Assembly (NCBI GenBank): GCA_964510805.1
Contig: CAZEDG010000005.1
Span: forward strand, 1 to 44,979
Source: an uncultured Candidatus Saccharibacteria bacterium
GTDB taxonomy: Bacteria > Patescibacteriota > Minisyncoccia > Phycocordibacterales > UBA5272
Length of the DNA stretch: 44,979 bases
Direction: 5' to 3'
Part shown: positions 3,209-38,345 of the stretch, piece after piece
How positions within the stretch are numbered: position 1 is the first letter of the stretch
How the letters are laid out: each line of letters starts with the position of its first letter
Made by a program: the position numbers and the translations under genes
Notes under the pieces: model-generated
The model's input: the letters and a program-made list of their open reading frames with translations, nothing else
Database searches by the model: none
What the model was told of the DNA's origin: nothing

Positions 3209-3457
3209 ACAGTATGAAGAGTGAGGAGCGTAGACGGAGATGCAAAAACTAGATTTTAGACGTTAGACTTTAGATATTAGAAAATACAGACAACACAAAA
3301 TACAAGAGCGACACCTTCGGTGTCGCTCTTGTGTTCCTTTGTTTTGTCTATGTTCTGTAAGCGAAGCAATCTGTGCTCTAGCGTCTACACTGTCTAATAT
3401 CTAACGTCTAAGACCTAGTTTTAAACTTCATTCCTCATTCTTCACTCCTCTTTCTAT
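3209..3457. repeat. Intergenic mosaic element, copy A1 (palindrome 3302-3332)
   Basis: ACAAGAGCGACACC-TTC-GGTGTCGCTCTTGT, a 14-bp perfect stem. Flanked by TAGANNT heptamers on the left and their complements on the right, with GCGAAGC at 3361. Lies between convergent genes. Confidence 0.9.
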
Positions 3458-4579
3458 TTAGAATGGATTCTTTGCACCACGCACTTCGAAGTGAAGATGA
3501 GGGCCTGTTGATCTTCCTGTGTTACCAACTTCACCAATCTGCTCACCTTGTGAGACGCTTTGACCTGATGACACATATACTGCACGAAGGTGTGCATAAA
3601 CAGTCTGCACTCCATTATCATGAGTGATAATTACCATGTTTCCGTATCCTCCATTGTATCCTCCTGTTTTTGCAACAATCACCTTTCCTGTTGCAGAAGC
3701 TAGTACAGGAGTTCCTGGTGTTGCACCAATATCGATACCATTATGACCATGAATTCCTTGCGTCTTGCGACCACCAATAACAGGACGAGTAAAGAATCCG
3801 CTTGGTGTTGTGTAACTATAAAAATCAAGAATCTTAGACTTCTTAGTCTTAGAAGCAAGGGTTTTCTTCTTAGGAGTTTCTGTTACTGCAATTTCACCAT
3901 CTGGCACAATTACCACATCACCAGAAGCAAGCTTAGATTCTTCGGTGAGCCCGTTATAACTAGCTATATCATCCTTGTCTGCTCCATACTTACGAGCAAT
4001 GGATGCGAGGGTATCGCCTTGTTTTACGGTGTGCTTAATTCCTGTGATAGGGAGGATAATGAGTGTATCTCCTTTTGTGATTGTTCTAGAAGAAAGATTG
4101 TTTGCCCACATAATAGTATTCACAGAAACACCAAAAAGCTTTGCAACATCTTGTATTGTGTCGCCCTTTTTTACTTCATACACACTAATTGTGTCGGTGG
4201 TAGGGAAGTCGACATCTTCGGTTGAGACACGGAGAGATCCAGACACCGCCTGAAGTGCTTCTTGGTTAAGGTCAACCTCATTATCTGTTGTGGTGCCGTC
4301 AACAATTGTTGGCTTGAAGATCGACATAGTCTGAGAAGTAAGAGGGGCCGGTTCTTCTTGTGCTTCTGCTTCTTCTATAAAAAGAGTCTTGAATTTATTG
4401 GCAAAAGTAGAAAAAACTGACGCATGAGCATACACAGGAAATGTGACGCTAAGTGCACAAGCAATGAGAAGAAACGTATGTGACGTAATCTGGTTACGTT
4501 TTTTTTGAGCTACTATAATAGTTGTTATAGATGAAGGTAAAGATAAAAATGTATCTTTAGAGACAATAATTGTATTCAA
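3458..4579 (-). CDS. LysM-LysM-M23 metallopeptidase (peptidoglycan hydrolase/activator family); start uncertain (TTG)
   Basis: Two LysM repeats (YEVKKGDTIQDVAKLFGVS, HTVKQGDTLASIARKYG). M23 motifs HNGIDIG, YAHL and HLHFE. Signal-like segment ending VYAHA. Confidence 0.92.
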   Translation of the reverse strand: MNTIIVSKDTFLSLPSSITTIIVAQKKRNQITSHTFLLIACALSVTFPVYAHASVFSTFANKFKTLFIEEAEAQEEPAPLTSQTMSIFKPTIVDGTTTDNEVDLNQEALQAVSGSLRVSTEDVDFPTTDTISVYEVKKGDTIQDVAKLFGVSVNTIMWANNLSSRTITKGDTLIILPITGIKHTVKQGDTLASIARKYGADKDDIASYNGLTEESKLASGDVVIVPDGEIAVTETPKKKTLASKTKKSKILDFYSYTTPSGFFTRPVIGGRKTQGIHGHNGIDIGATPGTPVLASATGKVIVAKTGGYNGGYGNMVIITHDNGVQTVYAHLRAVYVSSGQSVSQGEQIGEVGNTGRSTGPHLHFEVRGAKNPF

Positions 4580-4719
4580 AAATTGTCAAGAATTTTCTCC
4601 CAAAAGGAGTGCACTTATAAGTATACCAGAGCGGAAGAATCATTCAAGAATAGACAAGTGCAAAATATGTGGAGAAGTATCATAAAAGTCTTACAAAATA
4701 AAGTATACTAAGAATATCT

Positions 4720-7700
4720 ATGAGTGGAGGAAGACCTACTAATACCAACCTTAACGACGGATCGACGAATCCGTTTTTGGCGAGGCTTAGAGCGGGAGCG
4801 CAGGAAGATGAGATTTCTACAAAAGATCCTAATCTCTTAATTTCTCAGACTTCCGAAGATGATCTTTCTGATCCGTATCGTCTTAGTCCAGAAATGGGTA
4901 CAGAAAATGAAATTAAGAGGCATAATCCAGAAGCTAGACCAATAGCTGACACTGTCCCAAAAACTGCTTTTGTGGTGAGGCACAAAAAAGACAACGAACC
5001 ATCTGCCGGCACCTTCCATTCAAATGTTCAAGAAACTAACCCAGAGACAAGCGCCGAAACTGTTCTTAAGGGGAGATTTGCTGATGTTAACTCTGATCCT
5101 GATTTTTCTCTAAACGATGAAGCAATACACGGAACCCCTTCAGGCCTAAAGTCTAAGCTCAGTAGAGTTGGAGGGGAACTAAAACCGAAAACACAACTAG
5201 ATGAAAGAACAAAAAGGCTACTTAAGATTGCTGAAGCTGCTCTTGCCTCCGGACTTGATTTAGATGAAGAAGGCAATCTTGTAGGAGATATTCCTCTAAC
5301 TCCTGAAGAAATACTTGATCAAAGAAGAAAAGAAAGAGAACCTTTACTTGCAAGACTTCATGAAGTACGGGCAAGATTCGTAGAAAAAGAAAAACAAATT
5401 AAGAACAATAATCTTACTATATCTGATTTTGGCGCTCTTAAAAATCTTTTATTTATAATTGAAGGAATGCTTTCTGATGCGGAGCTTGAGAATTTTCAAG
5501 ATCAAGAAAAAACTATTCAAGACGGTTTAGACAACGTAGAAAAAGGGATAGACTACCTAGAAAAACAAATCGAGGAAGGACTAAAAAAATCTACTCGAAT
5601 CCTAGAGCGACAAGAATCAAGAACAAAATACGCAGAACTTACCGGAAGCTACACTGCGTTTCAGAGAGGGCCATTCTACAAAGATCTTAATGACGCACAG
5701 AAGCAACAACTCTCTGCGGAGTTCTACGAACTTGATTGGCTTAAGACATCGCCTGGGGAACACATAGATCTTTCGGTTGATGATATTAACCAAAAGCTAG
5801 AAGCACTCGAAAAACTTCTCACCGAATCAGAAGAGGTAATCACAAAGATAGCAGAGCAAAATGAAGATAAGCTTCGTATCGAGGAGAACATCAGAAGACA
5901 GGGGACGCTTCTTTTGGGGACTTTTGTTCACCTCAAAGAAGATGTCGAGAGGGTAAAAGCAACACTAACCGAAAACATACCTCTTGTAGCAGTGCTCGAC
6001 GTCTTAGCAGACGAAATCGAAGATCTTGATAGAAAGATTCTAGACAAACCAACAACAGGTGACTTAGAAGACCTACAAAAAAAGGTCGGGGAGTACAAAG
6101 ATAAAGTCAAAGAATTTAACCTTGAAGTTGAAAAATTAGAAAAAGCATCTGCCGTTGAGAACTTCGGTACTTGGAGCGATCTCTCAAGAATTCTAAGATA
6201 TATTCCAGGCAAGAATTCAAAAGATCCTAGACAAAAACCAACATCTGGTCGTTGGGTTATCACTATCGAAGACAGAGAAGTTGCTCCAAAAGACCAGAGT
6301 GCTTGGTCAGGAGTTGATACCGACTTCAAAAGAATATGGAAGAGATACGAAGATCTTTTCTCAGGAGCAAAAGCAACGGACAAGGCTACCCGCTTCAAGG
6401 ATATTATACAAGATAAAAATCTTATCTTGCGCGCAGTCCTTGATCAAGATGCAACACTTGCACTCACCTTAATCAAGACCATTGCACCTAAGATCGATGA
6501 GGCTTTTGTTACTTGGGAAAAAGAGCAAAATCAACTAGCAGAAGCGAAGGAAAGTATTGCAAAACAAGAAGCTGAAACAAAAGCAAAAATAGAGCAACAA
6601 GAAGTGCTTACAAAAAAACTAGATCTGTTACTTAAGGCTTTTGATGAACTTGAGAATGGGTATCGTGACTTTTCTACAGCTCCCAACAAAAGTACTCTTG
6701 AGTTTGAACACATCAACAGACTCTTAAAATCATTAAGAACGAAGAGGGAAGAACTAGAAGCAGAGAAAGGAAAAGATATAAAAGAGAGAGACTTAAAAGA
6801 AGAAGTTCTGTTGAAGTTTTTTCAAGATATCTCTTCGTGTAGAGAGGAAGTGGCAAGAATTCTTAGCAAGTCAGAGACTTTACGACCTTCTTTAGTTGGA
6901 AAAGTTGGCAAAAGACTCCTTCGCAAAGGGGGTGGTTCTATCGAGATCACAGAAGACACGCTTGCCAGCCTTGCAAGCGGTATCCCTGCCGAAGGCATGC
7001 AAGACAACCCTCTTAGCCCAGAAGGGTTCTTTGATGAGTTGGACAGAATATCAGAAATACATGAGACAGATATACGAGATGTACAATTTGACACCTTAAG
7101 AGAATCATTAGAGAACAACCTCGATAATGAGGAAAACTATGCAACACAAAACCTTGCAAATGAAAGCGACCTTCACAAAGCACAAATACGTATAAGATTC
7201 AAAGAAGCATGCGAGCAAGAACTTTACGGAAAAACCATGTTTTACGATACAAAAAACAGAAACTTTGATTCCTCTATCTTTGAAGAAACTAAGAACGCTC
7301 GAAATGAATTTCTTTCGATGTATGCAACTAAGTTTTTAACTAATTTATTAGTAGAAGAAACTAAAGATATCGTTGAGCATGTCTTTGCTAAACACAGACT
7401 TATTCTTAAGCTTAGCTACATAGAGCTAGCCAAGAAAAAACTTACAAAAATCGATGAACTTGAAAAAATAGCAAATAAAGAGAGCAAAGAGGCGCAAGAA
7501 GTCCAAGCAAGTATAGACACAACCACAGGACTTCTTACACTTATCGTAAGTGAACTTAACTTGCTTAATCTTAATGATAAAAAAAGAAAAGATTCTGTTT
7601 ACAAAGAATTCAATAAAAAAACTGAATCAGAAGCTCCACAAACCTACTCACCAGCAAATGACCCTTCTGTAAAACGTCCAAAGAAATCTGGACCAGTTTT

Positions 7701-8532
7701 TGGACGCTTGTTCAATTCAGATCCAAAAGAAACTGAATTTGCAAGAAAAGAAATGGCTCAAGCTATACCTCATGCAGTAGATAACCTTAAAGCGTACAAT
7801 GACTACGCCCAAGGAAGAGGTGACGGTAAAGATATTGCTTTGCCAATAAGAAAAGACCAAGAAGCTGGTATTAATGTTGAGGTTGTACTACCAAAGATAG
7901 ACCAAGAAAAGAAAAGAAACAGTGTCCAAAAACTTATCGATACACTTATAGACAAAGCAAGAAGTAGGGGTAACACTGCAAAAAATATTCTTCGCGCACT
8001 CTTTGTTAGCGGGGCAATTGCAGTTGGGAGTGCAGGAGCATCGACCGAGCCAAGTTACGGCAACGCTCCTCGAGCAGTAGCCGAGGCGCCAAAAAATCTT
8101 GGTGATCTTGCTGGCACCTGGAGAAATCTTGTTGAGGATGAATACAAGCCACTTCTTAATGACCTAACAGGTCCAAGTAAGCTTCCTTATGTTCAGCTTA
8201 TGGAAAAGTGTCTTCCTCTTACTCGTGGCAATAATCACGAAGGGAGAATGGGGACTATTTCACTCCTTAAGCCATACGATCTCCTCAATTCCCCTAATCC
8301 GATAGCAGGAATTAATGACGAAGAAAGAAAAGAGCTTTGTAAACTTGTTGAAGGTGAAGAAAAAATTTACAACTGGGCACAAACAGGGATCGATATTACT
8401 AAAGCCTACGCCTTTACACCGCAAACCTTAGAAAGACAAAAGACTATACGCATGCGCTATGATGATCTACTAAAAATTCTTGCACAAGTAGAAGACCTTG
8501 AACACAAAAGAAAGATAGCAAGTAGAACATAA
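4720..8532 (+). CDS. Large acidic, helical/coiled-coil orphan protein with possible C-proximal membrane anchor
   Basis: 1270-aa ORF rich in E/K/L/D heptad-like runs. One hydrophobic stretch, ILRALFVSGAIAVGSAGAS, about 170 aa from the C-terminus. TATACT box 10 nt upstream of the ATG. Confidence 0.8.
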   Translation: MSGGRPTNTNLNDGSTNPFLARLRAGAQEDEISTKDPNLLISQTSEDDLSDPYRLSPEMGTENEIKRHNPEARPIADTVPKTAFVVRHKKDNEPSAGTFHSNVQETNPETSAETVLKGRFADVNSDPDFSLNDEAIHGTPSGLKSKLSRVGGELKPKTQLDERTKRLLKIAEAALASGLDLDEEGNLVGDIPLTPEEILDQRRKEREPLLARLHEVRARFVEKEKQIKNNNLTISDFGALKNLLFIIEGMLSDAELENFQDQEKTIQDGLDNVEKGIDYLEKQIEEGLKKSTRILERQESRTKYAELTGSYTAFQRGPFYKDLNDAQKQQLSAEFYELDWLKTSPGEHIDLSVDDINQKLEALEKLLTESEEVITKIAEQNEDKLRIEENIRRQGTLLLGTFVHLKEDVERVKATLTENIPLVAVLDVLADEIEDLDRKILDKPTTGDLEDLQKKVGEYKDKVKEFNLEVEKLEKASAVENFGTWSDLSRILRYIPGKNSKDPRQKPTSGRWVITIEDREVAPKDQSAWSGVDTDFKRIWKRYEDLFSGAKATDKATRFKDIIQDKNLILRAVLDQDATLALTLIKTIAPKIDEAFVTWEKEQNQLAEAKESIAKQEAETKAKIEQQEVLTKKLDLLLKAFDELENGYRDFSTAPNKSTLEFEHINRLLKSLRTKREELEAEKGKDIKERDLKEEVLLKFFQDISSCREEVARILSKSETLRPSLVGKVGKRLLRKGGGSIEITEDTLASLASGIPAEGMQDNPLSPEGFFDELDRISEIHETDIRDVQFDTLRESLENNLDNEENYATQNLANESDLHKAQIRIRFKEACEQELYGKTMFYDTKNRNFDSSIFEETKNARNEFLSMYATKFLTNLLVEETKDIVEHVFAKHRLILKLSYIELAKKKLTKIDELEKIANKESKEAQEVQASIDTTTGLLTLIVSELNLLNLNDKKRKDSVYKEFNKKTESEAPQTYSPANDPSVKRPKKSGPVFGRLFNSDPKETEFARKEMAQAIPHAVDNLKAYNDYAQGRGDGKDIALPIRKDQEAGINVEVVLPKIDQEKKRNSVQKLIDTLIDKARSRGNTAKNILRALFVSGAIAVGSAGASTEPSYGNAPRAVAEAPKNLGDLAGTWRNLVEDEYKPLLNDLTGPSKLPYVQLMEKCLPLTRGNNHEGRMGTISLLKPYDLLNSPNPIAGINDEERKELCKLVEGEEKIYNWAQTGIDITKAYAFTPQTLERQKTIRMRYDDLLKILAQVEDLEHKRKIASRT

Positions 8533-8547
8533 TACAAAAAAAATCTT

Positions 8548-8835
8548 ATGAACTTCGATCAACTTTATGCACAGCTAGTACAAGACTTCCATCTACAAGA
8601 TCTTCCAGAAGAAGATCGCGATGAGATGCTTGTTGAAGTTGCAAAAACAATACAGAAGCAATTTCTTCTTGATGTATATGACAAGATAGGCGAGACACAG
8701 TTCGATGCACTTCAAGCATCAGCAAACATGGGGGAAGAATTTTATGCAACCACACTTAAGCATGTCGTTCCTGACTATGAGCAACTCTTCCAAGAAGCTC
8801 GCAAGAAGGTGGTGGAAGCGTTCCATAATGGATAG
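8548..8835 (+). CDS. Small helical protein resembling the CPR-enriched DUF5663 family
   Basis: 95 aa. Pattern LQDLPEEDRDEML...IQKQFLLDVYDKI...VPDYEQLFQE recognised by eye. Confidence 0.6.
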   Translation: MNFDQLYAQLVQDFHLQDLPEEDRDEMLVEVAKTIQKQFLLDVYDKIGETQFDALQASANMGEEFYATTLKHVVPDYEQLFQEARKKVVEAFHNG

Positions 8836-8966
8836 ACGTTAGGCGTTAGACTTTAGACTCTAGATAAAAATACAATACAGAGAGCGAGGCCGAAGGCCTC
8901 GCTCTCTGTATTTGGGTGTCTACTATTAACTATTAACTTATCTGTATTTTCTAATATCTAAAGTCT
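8833..8966. repeat. Intergenic mosaic element, copy A2 (palindrome 8874-8912)
   Basis: AATACAGAGAGCGAGGCC-GAA-GGCCTCGCTCTCTGTATT, an 18-bp perfect stem. TAGACGT/TAGACTT heptamers on the left, TTAACTA heptamers on the right. Confidence 0.9.
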
Positions 8967-8989
8967 GCCATATGCTAAACTAAAGCATC

Positions 8990-10927: not shown

Positions 10928-11066
10928 GAGACTAGATGGTAGATGTTAGACTTTAGGTATTAGAAAAATACAAGACAATAGAAAAAGGGCGGCACCTAAC
11001 GGTGTCGCCCTTGTTTGTTCTGTAAGCGAAGCGGTCTGTTGTCTGTCCGTCTGTTATCTATTTCTC
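10928..11066. repeat. Intergenic mosaic element, copy A3 (variant hairpin 10985-11012), probable bidirectional terminator
   Basis: AAGGGCGGCACC-TAAC-GGTGTCGCCCTT with one G.T pair. ACTAGATGGTAGATGTTAGACTTTAG on the left, GCGAAGC at 11026. Lies between convergent genes. Confidence 0.8.
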
Positions 11067-11558
11067 TTACCTATTCTTCTTACAGGTAAGAGCGATATAG
11101 GTTCGCCTCGGAACAAACTCAAGCACAAAGATCCAGACCCATGTGACCATGAGCGCAAGCTCGATGACAGGAAAAAGCTTTATCACCCAATTGCTTCGTA
11201 ACCACATCACGAAGCCCTTGTCATGTATGACACCTTGCCAACCGTAACACTTTTGAAGAGGGACAACTGCAATACTGCGAAGCTCTTCGATAAAACTCTC
11301 AAAAAGAGTCTCTTCCAAAGTTTCAAGATGCGAATAATCCGCATTCAAATACGAGTCAAGAAGAAGAAGCGTGAATCCAACGACACTTACCACAAAGTAT
11401 GAAGCAATGATTCCTTGTCCCTCTGCCTTACTTCCAAACATTGCAAGTGCCACAACAGTAAAACAGAAAAACATAATCACCGGTGCAACAATTACATAGA
11501 GCAGTTGCACAAACAACAAGAACTTCTTCCAATCAAAAGACTTTCCCAAAGTGTTCAT
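11067..11558 (-). CDS. Orphan multi-pass membrane protein (163 aa)
   Basis: Three hydrophobic helices. The ATG at 11558 is preceded by GGAGG; the track's GTG start at 11594 lies inside the -10 box. Confidence 0.7.
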   Translation of the reverse strand: MNTLGKSFDWKKFLLFVQLLYVIVAPVIMFFCFTVVALAMFGSKAEGQGIIASYFVVSVVGFTLLLLDSYLNADYSHLETLEETLFESFIEELRSIAVVPLQKCYGWQGVIHDKGFVMWLRSNWVIKLFPVIELALMVTWVWIFVLEFVPRRTYIALTCKKNR

Positions 11559-11590
11559 CTTTCCTCCATATTCATGAAGAATCTTGTTGC

Positions 11591-11619
11591 ACACTACATG
11601 AATAAACCAACTGTGTCAA
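11591..11619 (-). promoter_or_regulatory. Sigma70-type promoter
   Basis: TTGACA-17 nt-TAGTGT on the minus strand, directly after the upstream terminator. Confidence 0.65.
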
Positions 11620-11628
11620 CAAAAGAAA

Positions 11629-11659
11629 AAGCGCGGGTAGCCTTTGGCTACCCGCGCTT
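11629..11659 (-). terminator. Intrinsic terminator of the 11676-12854 gene
   Basis: 14-bp perfect GC-rich stem AAGCGCGGGTAGCC/GGCTACCCGCGCTT, followed by a T-tract on the minus strand. Confidence 0.85.
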
Positions 11660-11675
11660 GCGATGAGATGAACTC

Positions 11676-12854: not shown

Positions 12855-12901
12855 GAGAATTCTCCTCAAAATGGTTGATTTCAAAACAGCAATCAGATAC
12901 A

Positions 12902-12945: not shown

Positions 12946-12961
12946 GGATTCTACATTTTCC

Positions 12962-13780: not shown

Positions 13781-15120
13781 TCGTTACACTTCTTGTTCTC
13801 TACCTTCGTTTCATTGCTTCTTTTTCTACAAAAAAAAGATTCTTCGCTTCCTATCTCTTTGGTTTTGCTGTGAATGTCTACGGTTTGTCATGGTTATACA
13901 CCGTGTATCCGCTTTCATGGATGGAGAATAAGGTTTCACAGCTTGCCGGGATTACTCTCCTTATACTCATTCTCTCTCTAAGCACTGCATGTGCATACCT
14001 TGTGCTTCCTTTTGCTTTTCATAAAAAACTACACCTACAGGCACGACCTTTTGCCTTCGCTTTACTTCTTACACTTGCAGAAGTGATACGATCACTTATC
14101 ATCTCAACACTCTACTACGGCAACCATTCAACGATTGCACTACATTTCACAGCAGGGACTATTGGCAACGCACTTTCAACGACACCTCTTGTCGAGCTTG
14201 CGTACTTAGGTGGAGTGTTCGCACTCACCTTTACACTTGGATATATCATATATGGTATACAGAACAAGTACTCATTCCTTCTCTACCACAAACATCTTCT
14301 TGTCTTTATCGTGCTTCTTCTTTTTGTACACTACTTCATTCCAGTACATGCTCCCAAAAAACCAATCAGTATTGCTCTTATAAGCACAGATTTCGATGAT
14401 GTTCAAAAAGATGATGAGAAACTCTACACAGAAGCCTTCAAAAAAAATGAGGAGAAGTTGAAACGAATCATTCTCCCTCTTGCTTCATCATCACCTTCTT
14501 TTGTCGTGCTTCCTGAGGATACGCGTTTTCTTTCTCATCTTTCTGACAAAGAAAGGGAAGGGCTTACAAAAACTTTTCCCAAGACAACTTTTATTGATGG
14601 CGACTTACTCCCAACTCAATCTGGCTACTCAGCGATAGCGCTCTTTTATGCACCAGGAGACAAAAAGGTAGATCTTCGTGGCAAAGAAATGCTTCTCCCT
14701 TTTAATGAATACATTCCTCTATTCTTTAGACCAATCTTCGCGCTCTTCGTACAAGGCGACGAACTTGCTCGCTACGAGAAGCTTCACACCTTCACACCGC
14801 TCTTCGGAAGAAAAACCAGAATACTTGATGGAGTAAAAGTTGGCACTCTTATCTGTTCTGAAATTCTCTCAGATAGCGAAATACGATCGCTTAAAAGTGA
14901 GAGTCCCGACATAGTGTTCTTCCAATCACGTCTTAATGTGTTCCATAACAATCCATGGTTCCTGATGCATCTACGCTCATTTAGCAAAATCACTGCTTCA
15001 CAACTAAGAACTACACTTATAGGAAGCACGAGTGGTGCACCATCATTTGTAGTGTCACCACACGGCAAGTTCCTTCTTTTTACAGAAAGAAAAACGGGGG
15101 TGGATATGGTACAACAATGA
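13741..15120 (+). CDS. lnt: Apolipoprotein N-acyltransferase-like (membrane domain + nitrilase fold)
   Basis: About seven N-terminal TM helices. The catalytic triad motifs are retained: VLPED (E), GKEMLLPFNEYIP (K), LICSEI (C). Confidence 0.8.
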   Translation: MVAYLFELSYTGVIVTLLVLYLRFIASFSTKKRFFASYLFGFAVNVYGLSWLYTVYPLSWMENKVSQLAGITLLILILSLSTACAYLVLPFAFHKKLHLQARPFAFALLLTLAEVIRSLIISTLYYGNHSTIALHFTAGTIGNALSTTPLVELAYLGGVFALTFTLGYIIYGIQNKYSFLLYHKHLLVFIVLLLFVHYFIPVHAPKKPISIALISTDFDDVQKDDEKLYTEAFKKNEEKLKRIILPLASSSPSFVVLPEDTRFLSHLSDKEREGLTKTFPKTTFIDGDLLPTQSGYSAIALFYAPGDKKVDLRGKEMLLPFNEYIPLFFRPIFALFVQGDELARYEKLHTFTPLFGRKTRILDGVKVGTLICSEILSDSEIRSLKSESPDIVFFQSRLNVFHNNPWFLMHLRSFSKITASQLRTTLIGSTSGAPSFVVSPHGKFLLFTERKTGVDMVQQ

Positions 15121-15270
15121 CCATCGTTGCATGGGCCCGCAACGACGGTCATTGTTTGAATGAGGAATGAAGAAAGAAGACCGCTTCGCTTGTAGAAAAC
15201 CAGAAGTTAGATGTTAGACTTTAGGTATCTGTAGCTACTAATTACGAATAACTAATAACCAATTACGACC
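15113..15270. repeat. Type-B hairpin (15113-15156) plus heptamer flank
   Basis: AACAATGACCATCGTTGC-ATGGGCCC-GCAACGACGGTCATTGTT with one mismatch. The second copy is at 22763. Followed by GCTTCGC and TAGATGT/TAGACTT/TTACGAA heptamers. Confidence 0.85.
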
Positions 15271-15271
15271 C

Positions 15272-16177
15272 ATGCCCTACACACTTCTCCTAAGAATCAC
15301 ACTCTTCTCCATCTTTCTTGGTTGTATAGCTCTTACTGACTCTCTTTTTCATCTTGGAATTAAGGACATGCTTCCAGAGAGCGCTCAAAATCTTATCTGG
15401 TACCCCTTCATCTTCGGTACTCCACATATCGTTGCGTCATTCTTTTCGTATGCACATAGTGGTTACTATACGCACTACAAAAAACTTATCCTTCAGTCGC
15501 TCGGTGTAAGTCTTCTTCTTGTGTTTGTTTCTTTTATCTTTCTTCCACACTACGCAATGTATCTTTTTATTGCATATACTATGTACCACGTCGCATCACA
15601 ACAAATAGGTCTATCGAGGCCCTACAGTACCAACAAAACTTCGTATGATATGTGGAAATATTTCAGTCTTGTAGGCATTATCGCGATCACACTTTTTGTA
15701 GGAGGGGAGAATATGATGGTTCCTCTAACTATCATGCTTCCTTTTCTTCTGTATACCGGAAGCATCTCGCTTGGATTAGCTACATTCTTTGGCTATGAAA
15801 CTTTTAAAACATGGAATTACGGCATGGCAACAGTTGCGCTCTTTACTCTTGCTCTTCTTGTGATACTTCTTGGCTATCCTTTTGTTGGTATTCTTATGGC
15901 AAGACTTTCTCATGATATAAGTGCGTATAGCATCTACATCACTCATGCATGGAAAGGGGACACACTGTTTACCCGTGAATCACTTCGTTACTATACTCCT
16001 GTGTTCTATACAGTCTTCTTCTCACTTCTTTCGCTTGGTATAAGTTATCTTCTTGTGTCACATGTTAATTCAGTCTTTGTGCTTATCATTGTCATGGTTC
16101 TTTCTCTTATGCACTACATGCTCGAAGGAAAGGTATGGAAGAAAGGAGGAATGCATAGGGGGATGCTTGGTAATTAG
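15272..16177 (+). CDS. Polytopic membrane protein with four intramembrane His motifs (possible metalloenzyme)
   Basis: About nine TM helices. Motifs FGTPHIVAS, MYHVASQQIG, RLSHDISAY and LMHYMLEGKVWK. Confidence 0.7.
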   Translation: MPYTLLLRITLFSIFLGCIALTDSLFHLGIKDMLPESAQNLIWYPFIFGTPHIVASFFSYAHSGYYTHYKKLILQSLGVSLLLVFVSFIFLPHYAMYLFIAYTMYHVASQQIGLSRPYSTNKTSYDMWKYFSLVGIIAITLFVGGENMMVPLTIMLPFLLYTGSISLGLATFFGYETFKTWNYGMATVALFTLALLVILLGYPFVGILMARLSHDISAYSIYITHAWKGDTLFTRESLRYYTPVFYTVFFSLLSLGISYLLVSHVNSVFVLIIVMVLSLMHYMLEGKVWKKGGMHRGMLGN

Positions 16178-16279
16178 TAATTCGTTATTCGTAATTAGCA
16201 GAAGCGACACCTTCGGTGTCGCTTCTGTACTTTTGTATTCTGTATTACACGAATTACGAATAACCAATAACGAATTACT
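16176..16279. repeat. Intergenic mosaic element, copy A4 (palindrome 16199-16227)
   Basis: CAGAAGCGACACC-TTC-GGTGTCGCTTCTG. The outer inverted arms are AGTAATTCGTTATTCGTAATT and AATTACGAATAACCAATAACGAATTACT (7-bp units). Confidence 0.9.
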
Positions 16280-16343
16280 GGTTCCCTGTTCATAACTTCT
16301 TCCTTCCTCCACCTATTCCGGGCTATACTTCAAGTATCTTTCT

Positions 16344-19009: not shown

Positions 19010-19215
19010 AAGGACTAGATGTTAGCTACGAGACTTTAGAGGTTAGAGATACAAGAGCGACACCTTCGGTGTCGCTCTTGTATTCTTGTATCTCGTCTGT
19101 AGTCTATTTATCTGTGTTCTGTTGTCTCATTTTGCCTTCTGCCTCGCTCTTGTATTCTGTGTTATCTGTATTTTCTAAAGTCTAACATCTAATATCTAGT
19201 GCCATTAACTATCTG
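19010..19215. repeat. Intergenic mosaic element, copy A5 (palindrome 19049-19083)
   Basis: ATACAAGAGCGACACC-TTC-GGTGTCGCTCTTGTAT. Starts ACTAGATGTTAG and ends CTAACATCTAATATCTAGT. Shares a 57-bp block with copy A6. Confidence 0.9.
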
Positions 19216-22765: not shown

Positions 22766-23005
22766 AAACAATGACCGTCATTGCATGGGCCCGCAATGAC
22801 GGTCATTGTTTCTAGACAACAGACCACTTCGCTACAGACAGTAAGACAACAGACTAATACAAAAGCGACACCGAAGGTGTCGCTTTTGTGTTCTTGTATC
22901 TCGTCTGTAGTCTATTTATCTGTATTCTGTTGTCTCATTTTGCCTTCGATGTCGCTTCTGTGTGCCGGTATCCACTATTAACTATTAACCATTAACTACT
23001 AACCT
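22763..23005. repeat. Composite element: type-B hairpin (22763-22814) + copy A6 (22859-22889) + 57-bp block + TTAACYA heptamers
   Basis: 22-bp perfect stem around ATGGGCCC. ACAAAAGCGACACC-GAA-GGTGTCGCTTTTGT. 22891-22947 matches 19083-19139 at 56/57. Confidence 0.9.
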
Positions 23006-23024
23006 AGTATGGTATACTTTCCTT

Positions 23025-27824: not shown

Positions 27825-27875
27825 TGGTGTATTACCTACACACATTTATATTAGGTTCTTGCTATACTAAGCTCC

Positions 27876-30878: not shown

Positions 30879-30880
30879 AA

Positions 30881-31198
30881 TTATCTAAGTGTAGCAAATG
30901 CTTTTTGTAATTCTAAACTAAACTGTGAGTAGGGGGTAGTGAGTGCTTTTTGTTTTGGATAAATCACACAAGAATACGTTGGTGGAATACTAACTGTCTG
31001 TAAAAAAGTATACACTTTTCTTTTTACATAATTTCTATCAACTGCTTTTTTAATTGTTTTTTTGGAAATAACACAAGCGTATTTTTGGTTCGGTAAAGCT
31101 TCTGTATAAGCGATATCGAATAATTCATGACGAAAAAAGACCCGAGGACGTAATCCTTCGAAGTCTTTTTTTGAAAATCGCTTCGTTACAGGAAGCAT
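30881..31198 (-). CDS. rnpA: Ribonuclease P protein component
   Basis: MLPVTKRFSKKDF, VISKKTIKKAVDRNYVKR (RNR-like motif). Synteny with rpmH and yidC. Confidence 0.92.
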   Translation of the reverse strand: MLPVTKRFSKKDFEGLRPRVFFRHELFDIAYTEALPNQKYACVISKKTIKKAVDRNYVKRKVYTFLQTVSIPPTYSCVIYPKQKALTTPYSQFSLELQKAFATLR

Positions 31199-31216
31199 AC
31201 ATCTACTAATCTAAGC

Positions 31217-31351
31217 TTATACACTAAGCTTTTTGCGACCAATACTTCTTCTTCTTGCAAGAGCTTTACGTCCACCTTTAGTAGACATTCTTACTAGGAA
31301 TCCGTGGGTTGTACCTCGCTTCTTTCTTTTTGGATTATATGTAATCGACAT
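31217..31351 (-). CDS. rpmH: 50S ribosomal protein L34 (44 aa; not in ORF track)
   Basis: Translated by hand: [50 protein letters not shown] 6 nt upstream. Confidence 0.96.
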
Positions 31352-31483
31352 GGCGCTATTCTACATTAAAACTACGAACAAATCAAGAAAGTATCTTTTT
31401 TGAAATAATAAAGAGAAAATACTTCAAAAAAAACATACGTCAAGTTGAATCTCTACCATTCATGTGTATACTTACTCATACAT

Positions 31484-32821
31484 ATGGACTATCAACAACT
31501 TTGGAACAGTGCTTTATCCCAAATTGAGATAGAACTCTCTCGAGTGAACTTTAACACGTGGTTTAAAAATACGCGCATTATTGATTACAAAGAAGGGGAG
31601 GTTACTATTGGTGTTCCTAATGAATTTGTTAAGGATTGGCTTAATCAAAAGTATCATAAATTCATACTAAGAATACTAAGAACGATTCACGAAGGAGTAC
31701 GTTCTGTAATCTTTACTGTAGTAAAACCAGAAACACTACAAAAGAAAGCTCAACATATCTCAATTGTCGGTCAACCTCTTCCTCTTGGTGATCTTTATAT
31801 TAATAAAGATGATGGCCTTAACTCACGGTACACCTTTGATAACTTTATTGTAGGATCATTTAATGAAGTTGCATACGCTTGTTCTCAAGCGGTAATCAAT
31901 AATCTTGGTATTATCTATAATCCTCTTTTTATTTACGGAAGTACAGGCCTAGGGAAAACTCACCTTCTTCAAGCAATAGGAAATCATATTAAGAAAAAGC
32001 ATCCTGAGAGAAAGATTTTTTATACTTCTCTTGAAAAGTACTACATGGATTATGTAAACGCTACTAATCTCAATAAGATTAACAGCTTCAAAGAGAAGTA
32101 CCGTAAGTTCGATGTGTTTATTATGGATGATATTCAGTTTATTAACGGAAAAGAAAGAACTCAAGATGAACTATTCCATCTTTTTAACTCTCTTTATGAG
32201 ATGAATAAACAAATCATCTTTTCTTCAGATAAACACCCTAACCTTATCCAGGGACTAGAAGACCGACTACGATCACGTTTTAATCATGGAATGATTGTTG
32301 ATGTTAATATTCCATCTATGGAATCACGTCTTGCAATTCTCCAAGTAAAGACAAGGGATTTCCAAGAAAAAATTCCTCAAGAAGTACTTCAATATATCGC
32401 CGAAACAATTCAAGGTAATATCCGTGAACTAGAAGGAGTAATGACTTCAATTCTTGGTCATATTCAAGTAAAACAACAAGCAATTTCTCTTCCTGATGTA
32501 AAAAATCTTCTCAAGAACAGCGTGCGAGCTAAGAAAAGTATTTCTATTCCTGAGATTGTAAAGGTTATTTCTGATTACTATCATATCCCTGATGTATATA
32601 TTTACAACAAAACAAGAAGAAAAGATGTAGTAAAACCTCGTCAGATAGTTATGTTTATTCTTCGTGAAGATTTCGACATCTCATACCCTATGATAGGTGA
32701 TAGATTAGGAGGAAGAGATCATACTACAGTAATTCATTCTTACGAAAAAATTAAAGGTCTTCTAAAAGATAACCCTCAACTCTCTCGAGAAATAGAAGAT
32801 ATTCGTGCGATGCTTGTGTAG
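31484..32821 (+). CDS. dnaA: Chromosomal replication initiator DnaA
   Basis: NFNTWF, YTFDNFIVGSFN, YNPLFIYGSTGLGKTHLL, DDIQF, GNIRELEG, GGRDHTTVIHS. ATG 31484 preferred; TTGAAT-16-TATACT upstream. Confidence 0.98.
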   Translation: MDYQQLWNSALSQIEIELSRVNFNTWFKNTRIIDYKEGEVTIGVPNEFVKDWLNQKYHKFILRILRTIHEGVRSVIFTVVKPETLQKKAQHISIVGQPLPLGDLYINKDDGLNSRYTFDNFIVGSFNEVAYACSQAVINNLGIIYNPLFIYGSTGLGKTHLLQAIGNHIKKKHPERKIFYTSLEKYYMDYVNATNLNKINSFKEKYRKFDVFIMDDIQFINGKERTQDELFHLFNSLYEMNKQIIFSSDKHPNLIQGLEDRLRSRFNHGMIVDVNIPSMESRLAILQVKTRDFQEKIPQEVLQYIAETIQGNIRELEGVMTSILGHIQVKQQAISLPDVKNLLKNSVRAKKSISIPEIVKVISDYYHIPDVYIYNKTRRKDVVKPRQIVMFILREDFDISYPMIGDRLGGRDHTTVIHSYEKIKGLLKDNPQLSREIEDIRAMLV

Positions 32822-32826
32822 AGAGA

Positions 32827-32999
32827 CTAGATGTTAGATATTAGACTTTAGAGATTAGAAAATACAAGAGTGAAGCCTTCGGCCTCACTCTTGTATTTTT
32901 GTATCTACTATTAACCATTAACTATTAACTTATTTATACTTCTCTAACATCTAGTTTCTCATTTTCATTCTTCATTCCTCACTCTTTTCCTAACATCTA
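32827..32999. repeat. Intergenic mosaic element, copy A7 (palindrome 32859-32899)
   Basis: TAGATGT TAGATAT TAGACTT TAGAGAT TAGAAAA heptamers, then AAAATACAAGAGTGAAGCC-TTC-GGCCTCACTCTTGTATTTT. 12-bp inverted ends at 32827-38 and 32943-54. Confidence 0.9.
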
Positions 33000-33004
33000 T
33001 CATC

Positions 33005-33230
33005 TGTGTATAACTCTGTGGATATGTTAATAATAAGAAAAGAATAACTTCATAGTTATCCTTTTGATAGGTATACAATTCTCTTTCTTACCCACAACCG
33101 AGGTTTCTTTTCCTACATATGAGCTCTTAGTAAGTTCCTTATAAAACTATTGAAAATAAAAGATTTTTAAGAATTTCCACATCATCCACAGACCTATACT
33201 TAGTATTATATTTTATATATACTAAGAACT
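33005..33230. other. Probable oriC (dnaA-dnaN intergenic)
   Basis: DnaA-box matches TGTGTATAA 33005, TGTGGATAT 33017, TTACCCACA 33088, ATTTCCACA 33173 and TCATCCACA 33182, followed by an AT-rich tract. Confidence 0.75.
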
Positions 33231-34322
33231 ATGAAATTCGAATGCAAAGGTGATACATTTATAAAAGCGGTACAGCAAGTAGCAAAGGCTCGTAGTAAAG
33301 TGCAGTCTAAGAATGCCTTACAAGATATCCATCTTGAGATAACAAACCATCTTCTTACACTTCGTGCAACGAACTTAGAACTTTTTTGTGAAAAGAGTAT
33401 TTCAGTAAAAGGTGTTGTTAACGGAGCTTGTCTTATTCAAGGAGAAACACTGCTTCGTATCCTTGCGACATTTAGTTCCAAAGATATCACACTTAACTGT
33501 GAGTTAATTGAAGGAGTCTTTGCGATTACTACTGATAAAGGTACTATAGAAATCAAAACAACTCCATATGAGGATTTTCCAACACTACCACCACAAGGAG
33601 ATCAGATAGGGATGGTTAATAAGAATATAATAAGTACTCTCCTTAAAGAGGTTTCATTCTGTTCTGCAAAGAGTGATATAAAGCCAGAAATTGCCTCTGT
33701 ATACCTCTATACTAAAGATTCTTATATTTACTCCGTTGCAACTGATTCTTATCGTCTTGCCGAAAAATCTGTACGTAACGAGAATGATTTAGAGTTCTCA
33801 TTTCTTGTTCCAGAAAAACATATCCCAGAGATATTACAGATCATCGGTGAAGAGGAAGGTGATATTCTTCTTACTAAGAGTGAAAATATCGTTTCTCTTA
33901 CAGGGGAAACTTTTACGTTATCAATTCATACAATTACTGGATATTTTCCTGATTACAGACAACTTTTTCCAAAAGAATTTATTACACATATAACCCTTCA
34001 TAAAGATGATCTTCAGAAGGCGCTTACTTTAACCACGTTATTTAACGATCAGTATTCTCAAGTTGAATGTATTTTTGCTTCGGATAAGTGTACATTCCAT
34101 AGTCGTAGTGAAAAAGTTGGACAAGTAACTCACTCTATTGATATTACTAAAGAGGGTGATGATGTAGAAGCAAAATACAATAATAGATTCTTCCTTGAAG
34201 TACTTCCTTATATCGAAGGTAATGAAATTACTTGTAAGTTTTCTACTCCTAATAGACCTGTTTTTATTCAAGGAAAGAAAGATATTACGTTTACGTACCT
34301 CCTTATGCCTCTTAATAGGTAA
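33231..34322 (+). CDS. dnaN: DNA polymerase III beta sliding clamp
   Basis: LRATNLEL, EDFPTLP, VATDSYRLAE, GYFPDYRQLFP, YLLMPL. Follows dnaA. Confidence 0.96.
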   Translation: MKFECKGDTFIKAVQQVAKARSKVQSKNALQDIHLEITNHLLTLRATNLELFCEKSISVKGVVNGACLIQGETLLRILATFSSKDITLNCELIEGVFAITTDKGTIEIKTTPYEDFPTLPPQGDQIGMVNKNIISTLLKEVSFCSAKSDIKPEIASVYLYTKDSYIYSVATDSYRLAEKSVRNENDLEFSFLVPEKHIPEILQIIGEEEGDILLTKSENIVSLTGETFTLSIHTITGYFPDYRQLFPKEFITHITLHKDDLQKALTLTTLFNDQYSQVECIFASDKCTFHSRSEKVGQVTHSIDITKEGDDVEAKYNNRFFLEVLPYIEGNEITCKFSTPNRPVFIQGKKDITFTYLLMPLNR

Positions 34323-34325
34323 ATC

Positions 34326-34556
34326 ATGGATCCTAAACTTTTTAGTCGTCATATTACTCATCTTAAAAATGTTCAAGATGAAAAGAATATTCTTATAGAA
34401 AAGATATACAAAGAAACAAATGTTCTTCTTGATGATAAAGAAATACTCCTTTCTAAAAAAGAAATTTCTTTAAGAGTAAGCTCGGTAAAGAGAATGATAC
34501 TTAATTCTAAAAAACTAGGAGACATCATGAAGAAAGAGGGGTATGTACTTAAGTAG
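34326..34556 (+). CDS. Small basic hypothetical protein (DciA/DUF721-like candidate)
   Basis: 76 aa, 3 nt after the dnaN stop. Helix-strand-strand-helix-like pattern. The family call is weak. Confidence 0.55.
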   Translation: MDPKLFSRHITHLKNVQDEKNILIEKIYKETNVLLDDKEILLSKKEISLRVSSVKRMILNSKKLGDIMKKEGYVLK

Positions 34557-34712
34557 AAAGAAGAGTGAAGAGTGAGGAATGAAGTTGAAATACAGAAATA
34601 CAAGAGCGAGGCCGAAGGCCTCGCTCTTGTGTTCGGTATTAACCATTAACTATTAACTATAAACTATTAACCTGTATTTACTCCTCATTCTTCACACTTC
34701 TCTCTTCATTCT
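34557..34712. repeat. Intergenic mosaic element, copy A8 (palindrome 34600-34630)
   Basis: ACAAGAGCGAGGCC-GAA-GGCCTCGCTCTTGT. GAGTGAA/GAATGAA heptamers on the left, TTAACYA and CTCATTC heptamers on the right. Lies between convergent genes. Confidence 0.9.
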
Positions 34713-34714
34713 GA

Positions 34715-36904: not shown

Positions 36905-36960
36905 TTGTCTATAGTACCATATACTTAAAGAAAAGTGGTGCGTATGATAGTATGTACACT

Positions 36961-38160
36961 ATGGATAAAGTAATTATTGATGAAAAACGTATTGACGAGC
37001 TTCTTTCTCGTGGCGTTGAAGATATTATTGTAAAAGAAGAGTTAAAACAAGTTCTTCTTTCAGGAAAACAACTTCGTATTAAGCTTGGGGTTGATCCTAC
37101 AAGTGCAAAGATTCACCTAGGAAGAGCAATTCCTCTCCGTAAATTAAGAGAGTTTCAAAAACTAGGACATCAAGTAGTGTTTATTGTTGGTGATTTTACA
37201 GCACAGGTTGGTGATGCTTCTGATAAGTTGGATAAACGCCCAATGCTTACACGAGCGCTTATTGACGAAAACTTAAGAGATTACAAAAACCAAGTCGCTA
37301 AGATTCTTGATATTACAAAAACAGAATTTGTATACAATAGTGAATGGCTTTCTCGTCTTTCTTTTGAAGAGGTGACCAAGCTTGCAGAGTGTTTTTCAGT
37401 TCAACAAATGCTTGCACGAAGAAATTTCAAGGATCGATATGATAACGGAGTAGAAATTTCTCTACGAGAGTTCTTGTATCCTATTATGCAAGGATATGAT
37501 TCTGTTGCGGTAAAAGCAGATATTGAGCTTGGTGGTTTCGATCAGTTATTTAACCTAAAAGCAGGGCGCGTGATTCAGGAATACTTTGGACAACCAAAGC
37601 AAAATATCATGACGTTCCAAATGCTTGAAGGAACCGATGGACGTAAGATGTCGAGCTCTTGGGGAAATATTATTTCTATTGTTGATGATCCGGATACAAT
37701 GTTTGGCAAAGTGATGGCAATCAAAGATGAGCTTCTTGTGAAGTATTTCACTCTTTGTACAGACCTCCCTCTTGAAGAGGTTAAGAAAATAGAAAAAGAA
37801 CTTGAAAAAGGTTCTAATCCAAAAGATAGTAAGATGCGCCTCGCTCAAGAGTTGGTAACGATGTATCACACCGAAAAAGACGCAACGCTTGCAAAAAATT
37901 CATGGATCTCCGCTTTTCAAAATAAAGGAGTACCAGATTCTATTCCAGAACTTGTGTTACAAGAAGGTAAAGAATTAGGAGAAATGTTTGTACAAGAGGG
38001 GGTTGTTGTTTCTAAAACTGACTGGAGAAGACTTATTACTGATGGTGCAGTGAGGGATATGGATAAAGATGTAGAAATTACTGATCCAAAACAACTTGCG
38101 TATGAAGGAGTCTTTAAAGTTGGAAAGAAACGATTTATTAAGATAGTAATCAAGCACTAG
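36961..38160 (+). CDS. tyrS: Tyrosyl-tRNA synthetase
   Basis: KLGVDPTSAKIHLGR, YPIMQGYD, GGFDQLFN, KMSSS, C-terminal S4-like domain. Start is 36952 or 36961. Confidence 0.97.
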   Translation: MDKVIIDEKRIDELLSRGVEDIIVKEELKQVLLSGKQLRIKLGVDPTSAKIHLGRAIPLRKLREFQKLGHQVVFIVGDFTAQVGDASDKLDKRPMLTRALIDENLRDYKNQVAKILDITKTEFVYNSEWLSRLSFEEVTKLAECFSVQQMLARRNFKDRYDNGVEISLREFLYPIMQGYDSVAVKADIELGGFDQLFNLKAGRVIQEYFGQPKQNIMTFQMLEGTDGRKMSSSWGNIISIVDDPDTMFGKVMAIKDELLVKYFTLCTDLPLEEVKKIEKELEKGSNPKDSKMRLAQELVTMYHTEKDATLAKNSWISAFQNKGVPDSIPELVLQEGKELGEMFVQEGVVVSKTDWRRLITDGAVRDMDKDVEITDPKQLAYEGVFKVGKKRFIKIVIKH

Positions 38161-38162
38161 AC

Positions 38163-38345
38163 ACTAGATGTTAGAAAAGGAGTGAGGAATGAGGTAAGAA
38201 GAATGAAAGTGAAAAACTAGATGTTAGAGAGGTACAAACAGGTTAATAGTTTATAGTTAATGGTTAATAGTAGATACAAAAACACAAGAGCGAGGCCTTC
38301 GGCCTCGCTCTTGTGTTTTCTAATGTCTAAAGTCTAACATCTAAA
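38163..38345. repeat. Intergenic mosaic element, copy A9 (palindrome 38279-38319); inverted near-copy of A7
   Basis: AAAACACAAGAGCGAGGCC-TTC-GGCCTCGCTCTTGTGTTTT, a 19-bp stem. The reverse complement aligns with 32827-32999 with three 7-nt indels. Confidence 0.9.

Follow-up and report, generated by a model that had tools for sequence, protein, structure and literature searches.

The subject of this study is a 44,979-nucleotide stretch of DNA (contig CAZEDG010000005.1, assembly GCA_964510805.1, from an uncultured Candidatus Saccharibacteria bacterium), hereafter called the window, and the tandem repeats of 7-nucleotide (nt) units in its intergenic gaps. An earlier reading of the sequence, below referred to as the original prediction, had described these repeats as a heptamer grammar that fills the flanks of hairpins. 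Our analysis shows that this grammar is the internal anatomy of dispersed, mosaic, and imperfectly palindromic elements of approximately 130-250 bp, which are located directly after stop codons. The elements occupy ten gaps and are named S1 to S9, plus one that is denoted by its coordinates (10928-11066). All ten lie downstream of a gene 3' end, in tandem or convergent gaps, and the promoter-only gaps at 4580-4719 and 31199-31444 contain no such elements.

Period 7, hairpin core and heptamer arms

In the pooled intergenic DNA of the window, the self-match at lag 7 amounts to 0.344 compared to 0.274 ± 0.006 in shuffles (z = 11.4), followed by z = 7.8 at lag 14 and z = 7.2 at lag 21, which is the series of autocorrelation peaks that had been predicted. 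Coding DNA reveals period 3 alone. Arrays of at least three units with period 7 cover 6-22% of the intergenic bases, depending on stringency, and 0.03% of the coding bases, while arrays at periods 6 and 8 cover at most 0.5% of the intergenic bases. Tandem Repeats Finder reports at least 20 period-7 arrays, all of them in gaps. The repeats combine a tandem 7-nt excess over chance and over neighbouring periods with confinement to non-coding DNA, and hence classify as heptameric simple-sequence repeats, i.e., long simple sequence repeats sensu Mrazek, similar to the short tandemly repeated repetitive (STRR) sequences. By direct reading, the arrays that the original prediction quoted are found in their places and classes: TAGANNT at 32828-32862, TTAACYA from 32911 and 34639, GAGTGAA/GAATGAA from 34563, and TAATTCG/TTATTCG from 16178.

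Nine of the ten gaps carry a member of a single repeated hairpin family, composed of ACAAGAGCGA(CA/GG)CC, a 3-nt loop (TTC or GAA), and the complement. Over the nine copies the 17-bp stem is 96% paired, and compensatory double changes occur at 11 of its 17 pairs; the observed values were matched in none of 500 shuffles. The core consists of a GC-rich stem of 14-19 bp between two shoulders built of K units (see below), one A-rich and the other U-rich. As short, GC-rich, extragenic palindromes repeated in nine covarying copies, the cores are of the repetitive extragenic palindrome (REP) type; they are single hairpins, not the doublets known as REPINs. In a scan for terminator-like structures most core hairpins rank at the top, several of them on both strands, with S7 and S9 not listed. 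This agrees with the form of an intrinsic terminator, in which a GC-rich stem-loop downstream of a gene runs into a T-rich tail, the tails here being interrupted T-tracts. An Rfam search yielded no family for the elements. A metagenome search with the core pattern AGAGCGASRCC-N4-GGYSTCGCTCT was discarded as well, since it matched a common, unrelated leader/terminator of other bacteria, with no match being TAGA-phased.

The loop triplet (TTC vs GAA) varies among the copies and sets S2, S6, and S8 against S1, S4, and S5. Between S7 and S9 (32878-32880 vs 38298-38300) the flanks are colinear, one stem pair is compensated, and the loop triplet is flipped from TTC to GAA. A flipped loop between colinear flanks suggests loop inversion by template switching within the hairpin.

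The cores are enclosed by arms, which are short head-to-head arrays of 2-6 units each. We assigned the units to the classes T (TTAGANN), G (GARTGAR), L (GTTAATA), R (GTAATTC), and K (ATACAAR), and distinguish forward units from their complements. TTAGANN, GARTGAR, GTTAATA, and GTAATTC read 5' to 3' toward the hairpin on either strand. Of the runs located in gaps close to a hairpin, 30 out of 31 are directed toward it, the single exception being an overlap artefact; the purine-rich or forward unit thus lies on the 5' side and its complement on the 3' side, as originally claimed. With window and related genomes combined, this polarity holds in 8 of 10 cases. The outward order is constant: K units adjoin the stem, followed by L or R, then T, and finally G.

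RNA folds of whole spacers reach z = -5.5 to -10 against dinucleotide shuffles, compared to -0.5 and +0.2 for the promoter gaps. When the core is removed, the flanks are still complementary to each other in six of nine elements (z = -2.8 to -6.4). Flank-only complementarity is not significant in S5, S9, and the 10928 element, and S3 possesses a single arm. Self-complementarity of whole spacers, a further part of the original prediction, is therefore a property of most elements but not of all.

Dispersal, related genomes and phage contigs

The closest pairs of elements reveal how copies arise and change. S7 and the reverse complement of S9 share 88-89% identity over 171-190 nt, with every module in the same order; S5 and S6 share 90-93% over approximately 105 nt, with one 7-nt indel. 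For the former pair, which we assigned to 32815-33010 and 38150-38360, three indels of exactly 7 nt had been claimed. Their size proved exact, but two are internal and the remaining differences are ragged ends. All three internal indels in the two closest pairs thus measure 7 nt. In more diverged pairs the gap lengths show a secondary peak at 7 nt (13 gaps, vs 5, 4, and 4 at 6, 8, and 9 nt), in addition to module-sized gaps of 17, 22, 44, and 72 nt, in which whole modules were gained or lost. Along this line, an orthologous array in the related loci L021 and L026 differs by exactly one heptamer. The arrays do change in length by 7-nt steps, as had been expected. No array-length polymorphism was found at strain level, where independent contigs are at least 99.9% identical and gapless across S1, and then end in hairpins.

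The outer T units carry a terminus, CTAGATGKTAG, with 13 occurrences compared to 1.5 expected, always on the plus strand at left ends and on the minus strand at right ends. An inner unit of 128 nt delimited by this terminus is present in both S7 and S9; in S7 this unit spans 32827-32954 with inverted CTAGATGTTAG at both bounds. Several copies have C-TA-G at both ends, where a TA target-site duplication is indistinguishable from the unit's own TAG. An insertion sequence (IS) belonging to the elements would be expected to have ends that match CTAGATGTTAGA. With terminal inverted repeats and multiple dispersed, non-coding copies of less than 300 bp in both orientations, the elements have the appearance of MITEs (miniature inverted-repeat transposable elements). 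Furthermore, five independent short-read contigs from other samples break off within hairpin cores, which is the signature of a dispersed repeat. The original prediction had inferred that units expand by slippage or templated addition. The spacers have not been built up independently in place: each is a copy, in one orientation or the other, of a dispersed composite element whose inverted termini are conserved. Much of the grammar has thus been inherited by copying.

For comparison beyond the window, we used 37 related genome loci from Paceibacterota/Nomurabacteria-type metagenome-assembled genomes. The DnaN protein of the window shares at most 76% identity with any entry of the protein collection, and its closest named relatives are Parcubacteria/'Pacebacteria'. 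[quoted passage not shown] Among the representatives of GTDB no pair exceeds about 86%, and orthologous spacers are, as a consequence, mostly replaced.

Among the tandem arrays of the 37 loci, period 7 occurs most often (97 arrays, vs 31, 38, and 54 at periods 6, 8, and 9), the heptamers vary from genome to genome, and the hairpin core of the window is absent. The gap after dnaA illustrates the pattern: L033 has five TAGATTK units, its own GC hairpin, and complementary units, while L036 (83% nt identity) has four TAGGTTK units, a different hairpin, and complementary units of its own. Each arm matches its own partner; the arms thus co-vary, and the architecture is kept while the sequence is replaced. 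At another site L033 has a hairpin composed of GTTAGGN and CCTAACN units only, where L036 and L037 lack the spacer. In L021, TAGANNT and ANNTCTA arrays bracket a GC-rich, structured region of about 180 nt (11430-11610), which comes after a small open reading frame (ORF) downstream of dnaN and has no Rfam match even at E <= 1.

In about half of the relatives, TAGA pairs keep a phase of 7 and 14 nt, with 78 pairs at a distance of 7 compared to 8-39 at neighbouring spacings. TTAG/CTAA occurs in 29% of the relatives' non-coding period-7 units but in 9% of a composition-matched null, a 3-fold enrichment (P ~1e-4), and in 4% of arrays of other periods against a null of 10%.

Some arrays in the relatives lie on the 5' or promoter side of genes, such as AGTAAGN x4 and AATTWTC x4 (L033, 19267-19360 and 8149-8246; L037, 9358-9451). 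Their copy number is equal in L033 and L037 (84% identity), and one inverted pair on the 5' side has the opposite polarity with the C-bearing arm first. An expanded array, (TTACCTA)n with at least 16 units and an assembly gap inside, occupies the site orthologous to S8 in L039 (11389-11598), where it reads TAGGTAA in the sense of the convergent penicillin-binding protein (PBP) gene.

The T unit also occurs in viral DNA. Scanning IMG/VR for 3.5 consecutive TAGANNT units yielded at least 120 stretches. The matches listed contain 163 forward arrays, of which 23 have the complement within 150 nt downstream (head-to-head) and none upstream (tail-to-tail). About ten distinct contigs of 52-58% GC among these matches have a common layout: a stop codon, often the first TAG of the array, then (TTAGANN)3-6, a short loop, (NNTCTAA)3-6, and the next ATG or a convergent stop. 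In L171, a genuine contig of a tailed phage, the palindrome lies directly after the gene for the major head protein; for L274 no close annotated relative was found. Solitary viral arrays among the matches listed show no orientation preference relative to ORF ends (32 vs 33). The recurrence of the TTAGANN palindrome, with strict polarity, in phage contigs of ~55% GC and also directly after a major capsid gene suggests a sequence-specific signal rather than a compositional accident.

A mechanism that measures length rather than sequence had been put forward in the original prediction. Consistent with this, period 7 is kept across at least five classes in the window and across different heptamers in the 37 loci. 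Against it stand the enrichment of TTAG/CTAA in period-7 units and the recurrence of TTAGANN in relatives and phages with fixed polarity. Moreover, a 7-nt indel in a 7-nt array is expected of slippage in any array and is thus no proof of such a mechanism.

The individual elements and their surroundings

The window is a segment of a bacterial chromosome with dnaA (31445-32821) and dnaN (33231-34322), and further carries ruvB/ruvC, tyrS, a class A PBP gene, yidC, rnpA, uvrD, and a VirB4/PrgI-type cluster; about half of its ORFs have no Pfam match. S1 (3209-3457) is the most complete copy and lies in the convergent gap between a chlI-like and an M23 peptidase gene. It is composed of forward G units (3212-3225), forward T (3249-3283), forward K (3293-3306), the core hairpin (3299-3335), complement T (3391-3411), and complement G (3427-3454). 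Its fold has z = -10.0 (flank-only z = -5.6), it is terminator-like on both strands, and it is identical in the independent assembly L160. S2 (8833-8989) follows a gene of 95 aa, with the first TAGACGT unit providing its TAG stop, and contains forward T (8833-8859), forward K (8864-8876), the core hairpin with a GAA loop (8874-8912), complement L (8924-8937), and complement T (8948-8961). Contig L160 terminates within its hairpin.

The element at 10928-11066 occupies the convergent gap after uvrD and is 88% identical to part of S1. Forward T units (approximately 10933-10967), starting with CTAGATGGTAG, are followed by a K-like tract, a variant hairpin at 10985-11012 (AAGGGCGGCACC-TAAC-GGTGTCGCCCTT), and TCTGT-type units. 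S3 (15121-15271, plus strand) has no core hairpin. Its units, forward G (15158-15178), forward T (15207-15220), and complement R (15239-15252), follow a hairpin of a second family (approximately 15113-15158) that overlaps the stop codon; we read them as a forward, left arm only, and with z = -1.1 the spacer is not self-complementary. S4 (16170-16300) is dominated by R units, forward at 16170-16197 (GTAATTA/GTAATTC/GTTATTC) and complement at 16249-16275, around the core hairpin (16198-16228) and complement K units (16232-16245), with a flank-only z of -6.1.

S5 (19007-19198) begins with forward T units (19015-19049, starting with CTAGATGTTAG), which lead to the core hairpin (19048-19084), complement K (19077-19091), and TCTGT-type units; to the right, the degenerate remnant of a second hairpin (approximately 19118-19140) and complement T units (19172-19199) follow. 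S6 (22766-23024, fold z = -9.1) starts with a 19-bp hairpin of the second family (22766-22811) and AGAC-type units, continues with the core hairpin with a GAA loop (22856-22892) and complement K (22885-22899), and shares its 3' block with S5 before ending in complement L units (22976-23003).

S7 (32819-33005) follows dnaA. Forward T units (32827-32861), the core hairpin with one mismatch (32861-32897), complement K (32890-32904), and complement L (32909-32929) are succeeded by complement T (32939-32954), complement G (32958-32984), and again complement T (approximately 32988-33000). S8 (34556-34714) lies in the convergent gap between a 76-aa ORF and the PBP gene and comprises forward G (34556-34583), forward K (34587-34604), the core hairpin with a GAA loop (34600-34630), complement L (34637-34671), and complement G (34677-34711), with a fold z of -9.9 and a flank-only z of -6.4; contig L001 terminates within its hairpin. 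S9 (38158-38357) is S7 in the opposite orientation, with forward T (38164-38177), forward G (38180-38213), forward T (38217-38230), forward L (38242-38269), forward K (38274-38288), the core hairpin (38279-38319), and complement T (38317-38344). Three contigs (L161, L162, L164) terminate within its hairpin.

The second hairpin family (15113-15158 and 22766-22811) has a 19-bp stem, AAACAATGACCGTCATTGC/GCAATGACGGTCATTGTTT, and the loop ATGGGCCC. Both members are located at or overlap a stop codon, and heptamer modules come after them. Several elements are accompanied by a recurring module, AAGCGAAGCRRTCTGT(K)..., found at 3355-3378, 11021-11046, and 40398-40430 and as reverse complement at 15170-15187 and 22818-22835, with one occurrence outside the span of the original prediction.

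Directly after S7, the gap between dnaA and dnaN (33011-33230) contains DnaA-box-like TGTGGATA/TCCACA motifs in an arrangement that recurs in L033 and L036, and is probably oriC. Between ruvB and a pilB-like gene (40128-40395) lie about 200 nt of highly structured non-coding sequence (fold z = -4.9), with a perfect TTGACA-16-TATAAT promoter (40128-40155) at one end and, at the other, a terminator-like hairpin (40358-40391). Its Rfam search gave no match, and L160 contains, at positions 1-66 and upstream of another pilB-like gene, a stretch 88% similar to it; we regard the region as a candidate small RNA. L160, an independent contig of the Joint Genome Institute, is 99.99% identical to the window over 545-8902 and diverges totally upstream (window 1-544 vs L160 1-2377), where it bears a second pilB-like gene. 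The divergence at about position 545 is either a structural variant or an assembly join.

Proposed origin and role of the elements

We propose that whole elements or modules are copied between loci in both orientations, either by a MITE-like step or by recombination, so that each genome would end up with a homogenised hairpin core of its own. Within a copy, slipped-strand mispairing would add units to the arrays or remove them in 7-nt steps, in keeping with the general bias of bacteria toward heptamer repeats. Complementarity of the arms would persist because it is the long hairpin that is maintained. The core would act as a bidirectional intrinsic terminator, whose hairpin terminates, insulates, or protects the transcripts that come in from either side, and the arms would extend the hairpin in RNA (or DNA). 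While the anatomy is directly visible, a function as terminator or 3'-end hairpin is what we infer from the sequence, and the explanation as a whole, including copying, slippage, and terminator role, has in our judgment about an even chance of being correct.

Several observations weigh against it. The U-tracts are interrupted (UUGUGUU, UGUAUUU), and only shape and position speak for a termination role. The flanks are non-complementary in three of nine elements, and S3 is one-armed. Folds of sense and antisense RNA reveal no consistent G.U asymmetry, so that maintenance of the palindrome at the RNA level and at the DNA level is not separable. Within the window neither a transposase nor a REP-associated tyrosine transposase (RAYT) was found, nor a Y1 transposase, and no empty site was found for the element family. 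About half of the relatives' arrays are nearer to a gene 5' end, which makes the phenomenon broader than terminators. Finally, the choice of 7 over 4, 5, or 8 is taken from a published slippage hypothesis and is beyond the reach of our model.

The elements might be purely selfish MITEs of the IS630/Tc1-mariner type, comparable to RUP or Correia elements, which as non-autonomous transposons insert at the TA of CTAG and use the TTAGANN arrays as inverted terminal repeats. IS630 targets CTAG/TA. Terminator activity would then be incidental and the position after genes a tolerated insertion, with the (C)TAG stop as a possible target. The defined inverted termini, C-TA-G at both ends of several copies, the occurrence in both orientations at 88-93% identity, and the assembly breaks at elements fit this picture, as do the TAG stops enriched beside elements, the TTAGANN unit in unrelated phage contigs, and a different heptamer palindrome that L033 has and that L036 and L037 lack at the same site. 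The 23 to 0 head-to-head bias among the viral matches listed is also what terminal inverted repeats require. On the other hand, no transposase occurs in the window or is linked to the element ends, and the TA 'duplication' is indistinguishable from the unit sequence, as every unit contains TAG. Between S7 and S9 the copied unit is the whole composite, beyond the 128-nt inner unit, and relatives such as L036 have a separate heptamer per spacer rather than one dispersed family. The compensatory upkeep of the central stem and the period 7 of unrelated classes are left unexplained. We consider this origin rather unlikely. Neutral replication slippage, the other route to unit expansion named in the original prediction, dispenses with function altogether: DNA polymerase would slip preferentially by about 7 nt at or near stalled hairpins, whatever sequence adjoins a terminator would be amplified into heptamer arrays, and palindromy would result from duplicating the sides of the stem. 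According to Mrazek (2007), as represented in PMC4679880 and PMC4692102, heptamers are in many bacteria the most frequent class of long simple repeat, and a polymerase-footprint model has been put forward to explain them; the many different heptamers in relatives and the observed 7-nt indels agree with slippage. Units adjacent to the stem even resemble duplications of the stem base (GAAATACA twice at 34587-34602, TCTTGTAT twice at 19076-19091). But the specific enrichment and conservation of TTAG extend over genomes and over phages that differ widely in GC content, the classes follow a fixed outward order, composites are dispersed rather than built in place, and arms co-vary between orthologous spacers. 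Arrays are also short (2-6 units) and stable between two independent assemblies, and we hold slippage alone to be improbable.

Strict period 7 with a conserved core of 4-5 nt and a variable remainder is typical of protein sites, and the same core recurs in distant genomes with fixed polarity. The arrays might accordingly be iterons for a double-stranded DNA binder, similar to the omega repressor, or for a binder of single-stranded RNA or DNA with a 7-nt footprint, such as a cold-shock protein (Csp), which would modulate the hairpin. The omega repressor of pSM19035, a ribbon-helix-helix (RHH) protein, binds contiguous 7-bp heptads, direct or inverted, and the footprint of Csp comprises seven subsites. 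For the TAACTGA heptamers, binding by Csp, S1, or CsrA has been proposed by MacGregor (PMC4679880). Yet several binders would be required for the five or more unrelated classes of one genome, the arrays are located after genes and not at promoters, no candidate binder and no RHH gene occurs in the window, and related genomes swap the unit sequence at the same site; with the omega heptads the arrays share only the 7-bp phasing. Iterons are in our view very improbable. Templated addition, which the original prediction had considered, would invoke a reverse transcriptase or telomerase-like enzyme copying a 7-nt template. Except that unit length is constant and that some units (GTTAGGG in L033) look like telomeric repeats, nothing points to it: units within an array differ at 2-3 positions, several classes coexist, the arrays are internal and paired around hairpins, and the window has no reverse transcriptase. 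We give it hardly any credence. DNA-uptake sequences, TIGR arrays, and DnaA-related roles were dropped, as no feature supports them.

A secondary idea concerns translation. Units of the TTAG type would place stops in all three frames on both strands and would keep ribosomes off the stem, TTAG being the shortest word with a stop on both strands and 7 being 1 mod 3. Sense-strand stops are present in 30 of 35 3'-proximal arrays, compared to 68% in the null, and TAG stops terminate 9 of 14 element-adjacent genes but 6 of 23 others (p = 0.04). Against these figures it has to be held that element copies are not independent, that the G and R classes lack antisense stops, that the GGGAATC unit of Xanthomonas is stop-free, and that the solitary TTAGANN arrays of viruses are balanced relative to ORF ends. 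The idea is thus weakly supported. A stricter version, in which a sense-strand stop after the ORF is required, has modest support in relatives and none from the solitary viral arrays, and was rejected.

Among known systems, the nearest are the arrays of GGGAATC in Xanthomonas and GGGGAYT in Nostoc (Rehm et al. 2015, PMC4692102), which are likewise intergenic 7-nt tandem units, mostly between co-oriented ORFs. In Xanthomonas the sense copy lies within 50 bp of the stop codon or overlaps it, and about 70 convergent heptamer pairs per genome are capable of forming stem-loops, with a length that differs among related strains (PMC4692102). Both stop-proximal sense arrays and convergent pairs occur in our elements. 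In contrast to the single class of Xanthomonas, interpreted in terms of G-quadruplexes, at least five AT-rich classes are here nested around a separate conserved GC hairpin, and whole composites are dispersed as copies; the window contains neither a tandem GGGAATC or GGGGAYT unit nor a G-quadruplex motif. A polymerase-footprint slippage model that favours 7-nt units whatever their sequence, and the abundance of heptamers among long simple repeats, have already been published (Mrazek 2007, to the extent given in PMC4679880 and PMC4692102). In Beggiatoaceae, cyanobacteria, and Bacteroidetes, TAACTGA repeats bear stops in one orientation, occur in 2-6 copies, and are common to distant lineages with no known mechanism of transfer (MacGregor 2015, PMC4679880). 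They resemble our arrays as short runs of an AT-rich, stop-bearing heptamer that is excluded from ORFs in one orientation and shared by distant lineages. Unlike the paired arrays after stops described here, they are direct, almost never inverted (one case), and lie just upstream of starts; in the window TAACTGA is not repeated in tandem.

The original prediction drew its analogy to the STRR heptamers of heterocystous cyanobacteria, reportedly described by Mazel in 1990, with CCCCAGT, TTGGTCA, and CAACAGT as units. The analogy is fair with regard to several non-coding heptamer classes per genome, the heptamer excess, and proposed slippage. Closer precedents exist, though, and no STRR unit occurs in tandem in the window, which has other sequences, short arrays, and paired palindrome arms at gene 3' ends, in a CPR bacterium. 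REP sequences and bacterial interspersed mosaic elements (BIMEs), the BOX and RUP elements of pneumococci, and the Correia elements of Neisseria are hairpin-forming, modular gene-end repeats (see also the reviews PMC3184786 and PMC3116915). In this group the number of internal modules varies (boxB), some elements act as terminators or RNase III sites, and RUP and Correia elements have TA target duplications. Our elements are equally dispersed, non-coding, hairpin-forming, located at gene ends, and made of recombining modules; they differ by their 7-nt tandem units, and no RAYT or IS630 partner was identified. With bidirectional intrinsic terminators they share the GC stem, the short loop, A-rich 5' and U-rich 3' shoulders, scores on both strands, and the position in convergent or tandem gaps, but ordinary terminators form no repeated families and have no phased heptamer arms of 50-100 nt. 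We found nothing in the literature on TTAGANN arrays or on heptamer repeats in CPR.

The elements combine known stop-proximal, convergent heptamer arrays with mosaic palindromic repeats, and what is unexpected is the TTAGANN palindrome of fixed polarity that they share with unrelated phages. It is tempting, if doubtful, to regard the head-to-head TTAGANN palindrome at or just after the stop as a distinct conserved gene-end signal of CPR bacteria and of tailed phages with unrelated base composition, either a translation-proof hairpin or a recognition array. If so, it would be a terminator or stabiliser with stops in three frames on both strands, or an array for an unknown factor or transposase, and the signal would have been elaborated into a multi-layer heptamer grammar in this CPR genome.

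Our findings link three phenomena that have been described separately, namely the heptamer excess of bacteria, the convergent pairs of Xanthomonas, and the BIME/BOX/Correia mosaics. In practical terms, the repeats break short-read assemblies of such genomes at predictable points. To our knowledge, almost nothing is known about how transcripts are ended or insulated in CPR/Patescibacteria. The elements look like the main occupant of the post-gene gaps here, and thus offer a concrete, testable candidate for this step.

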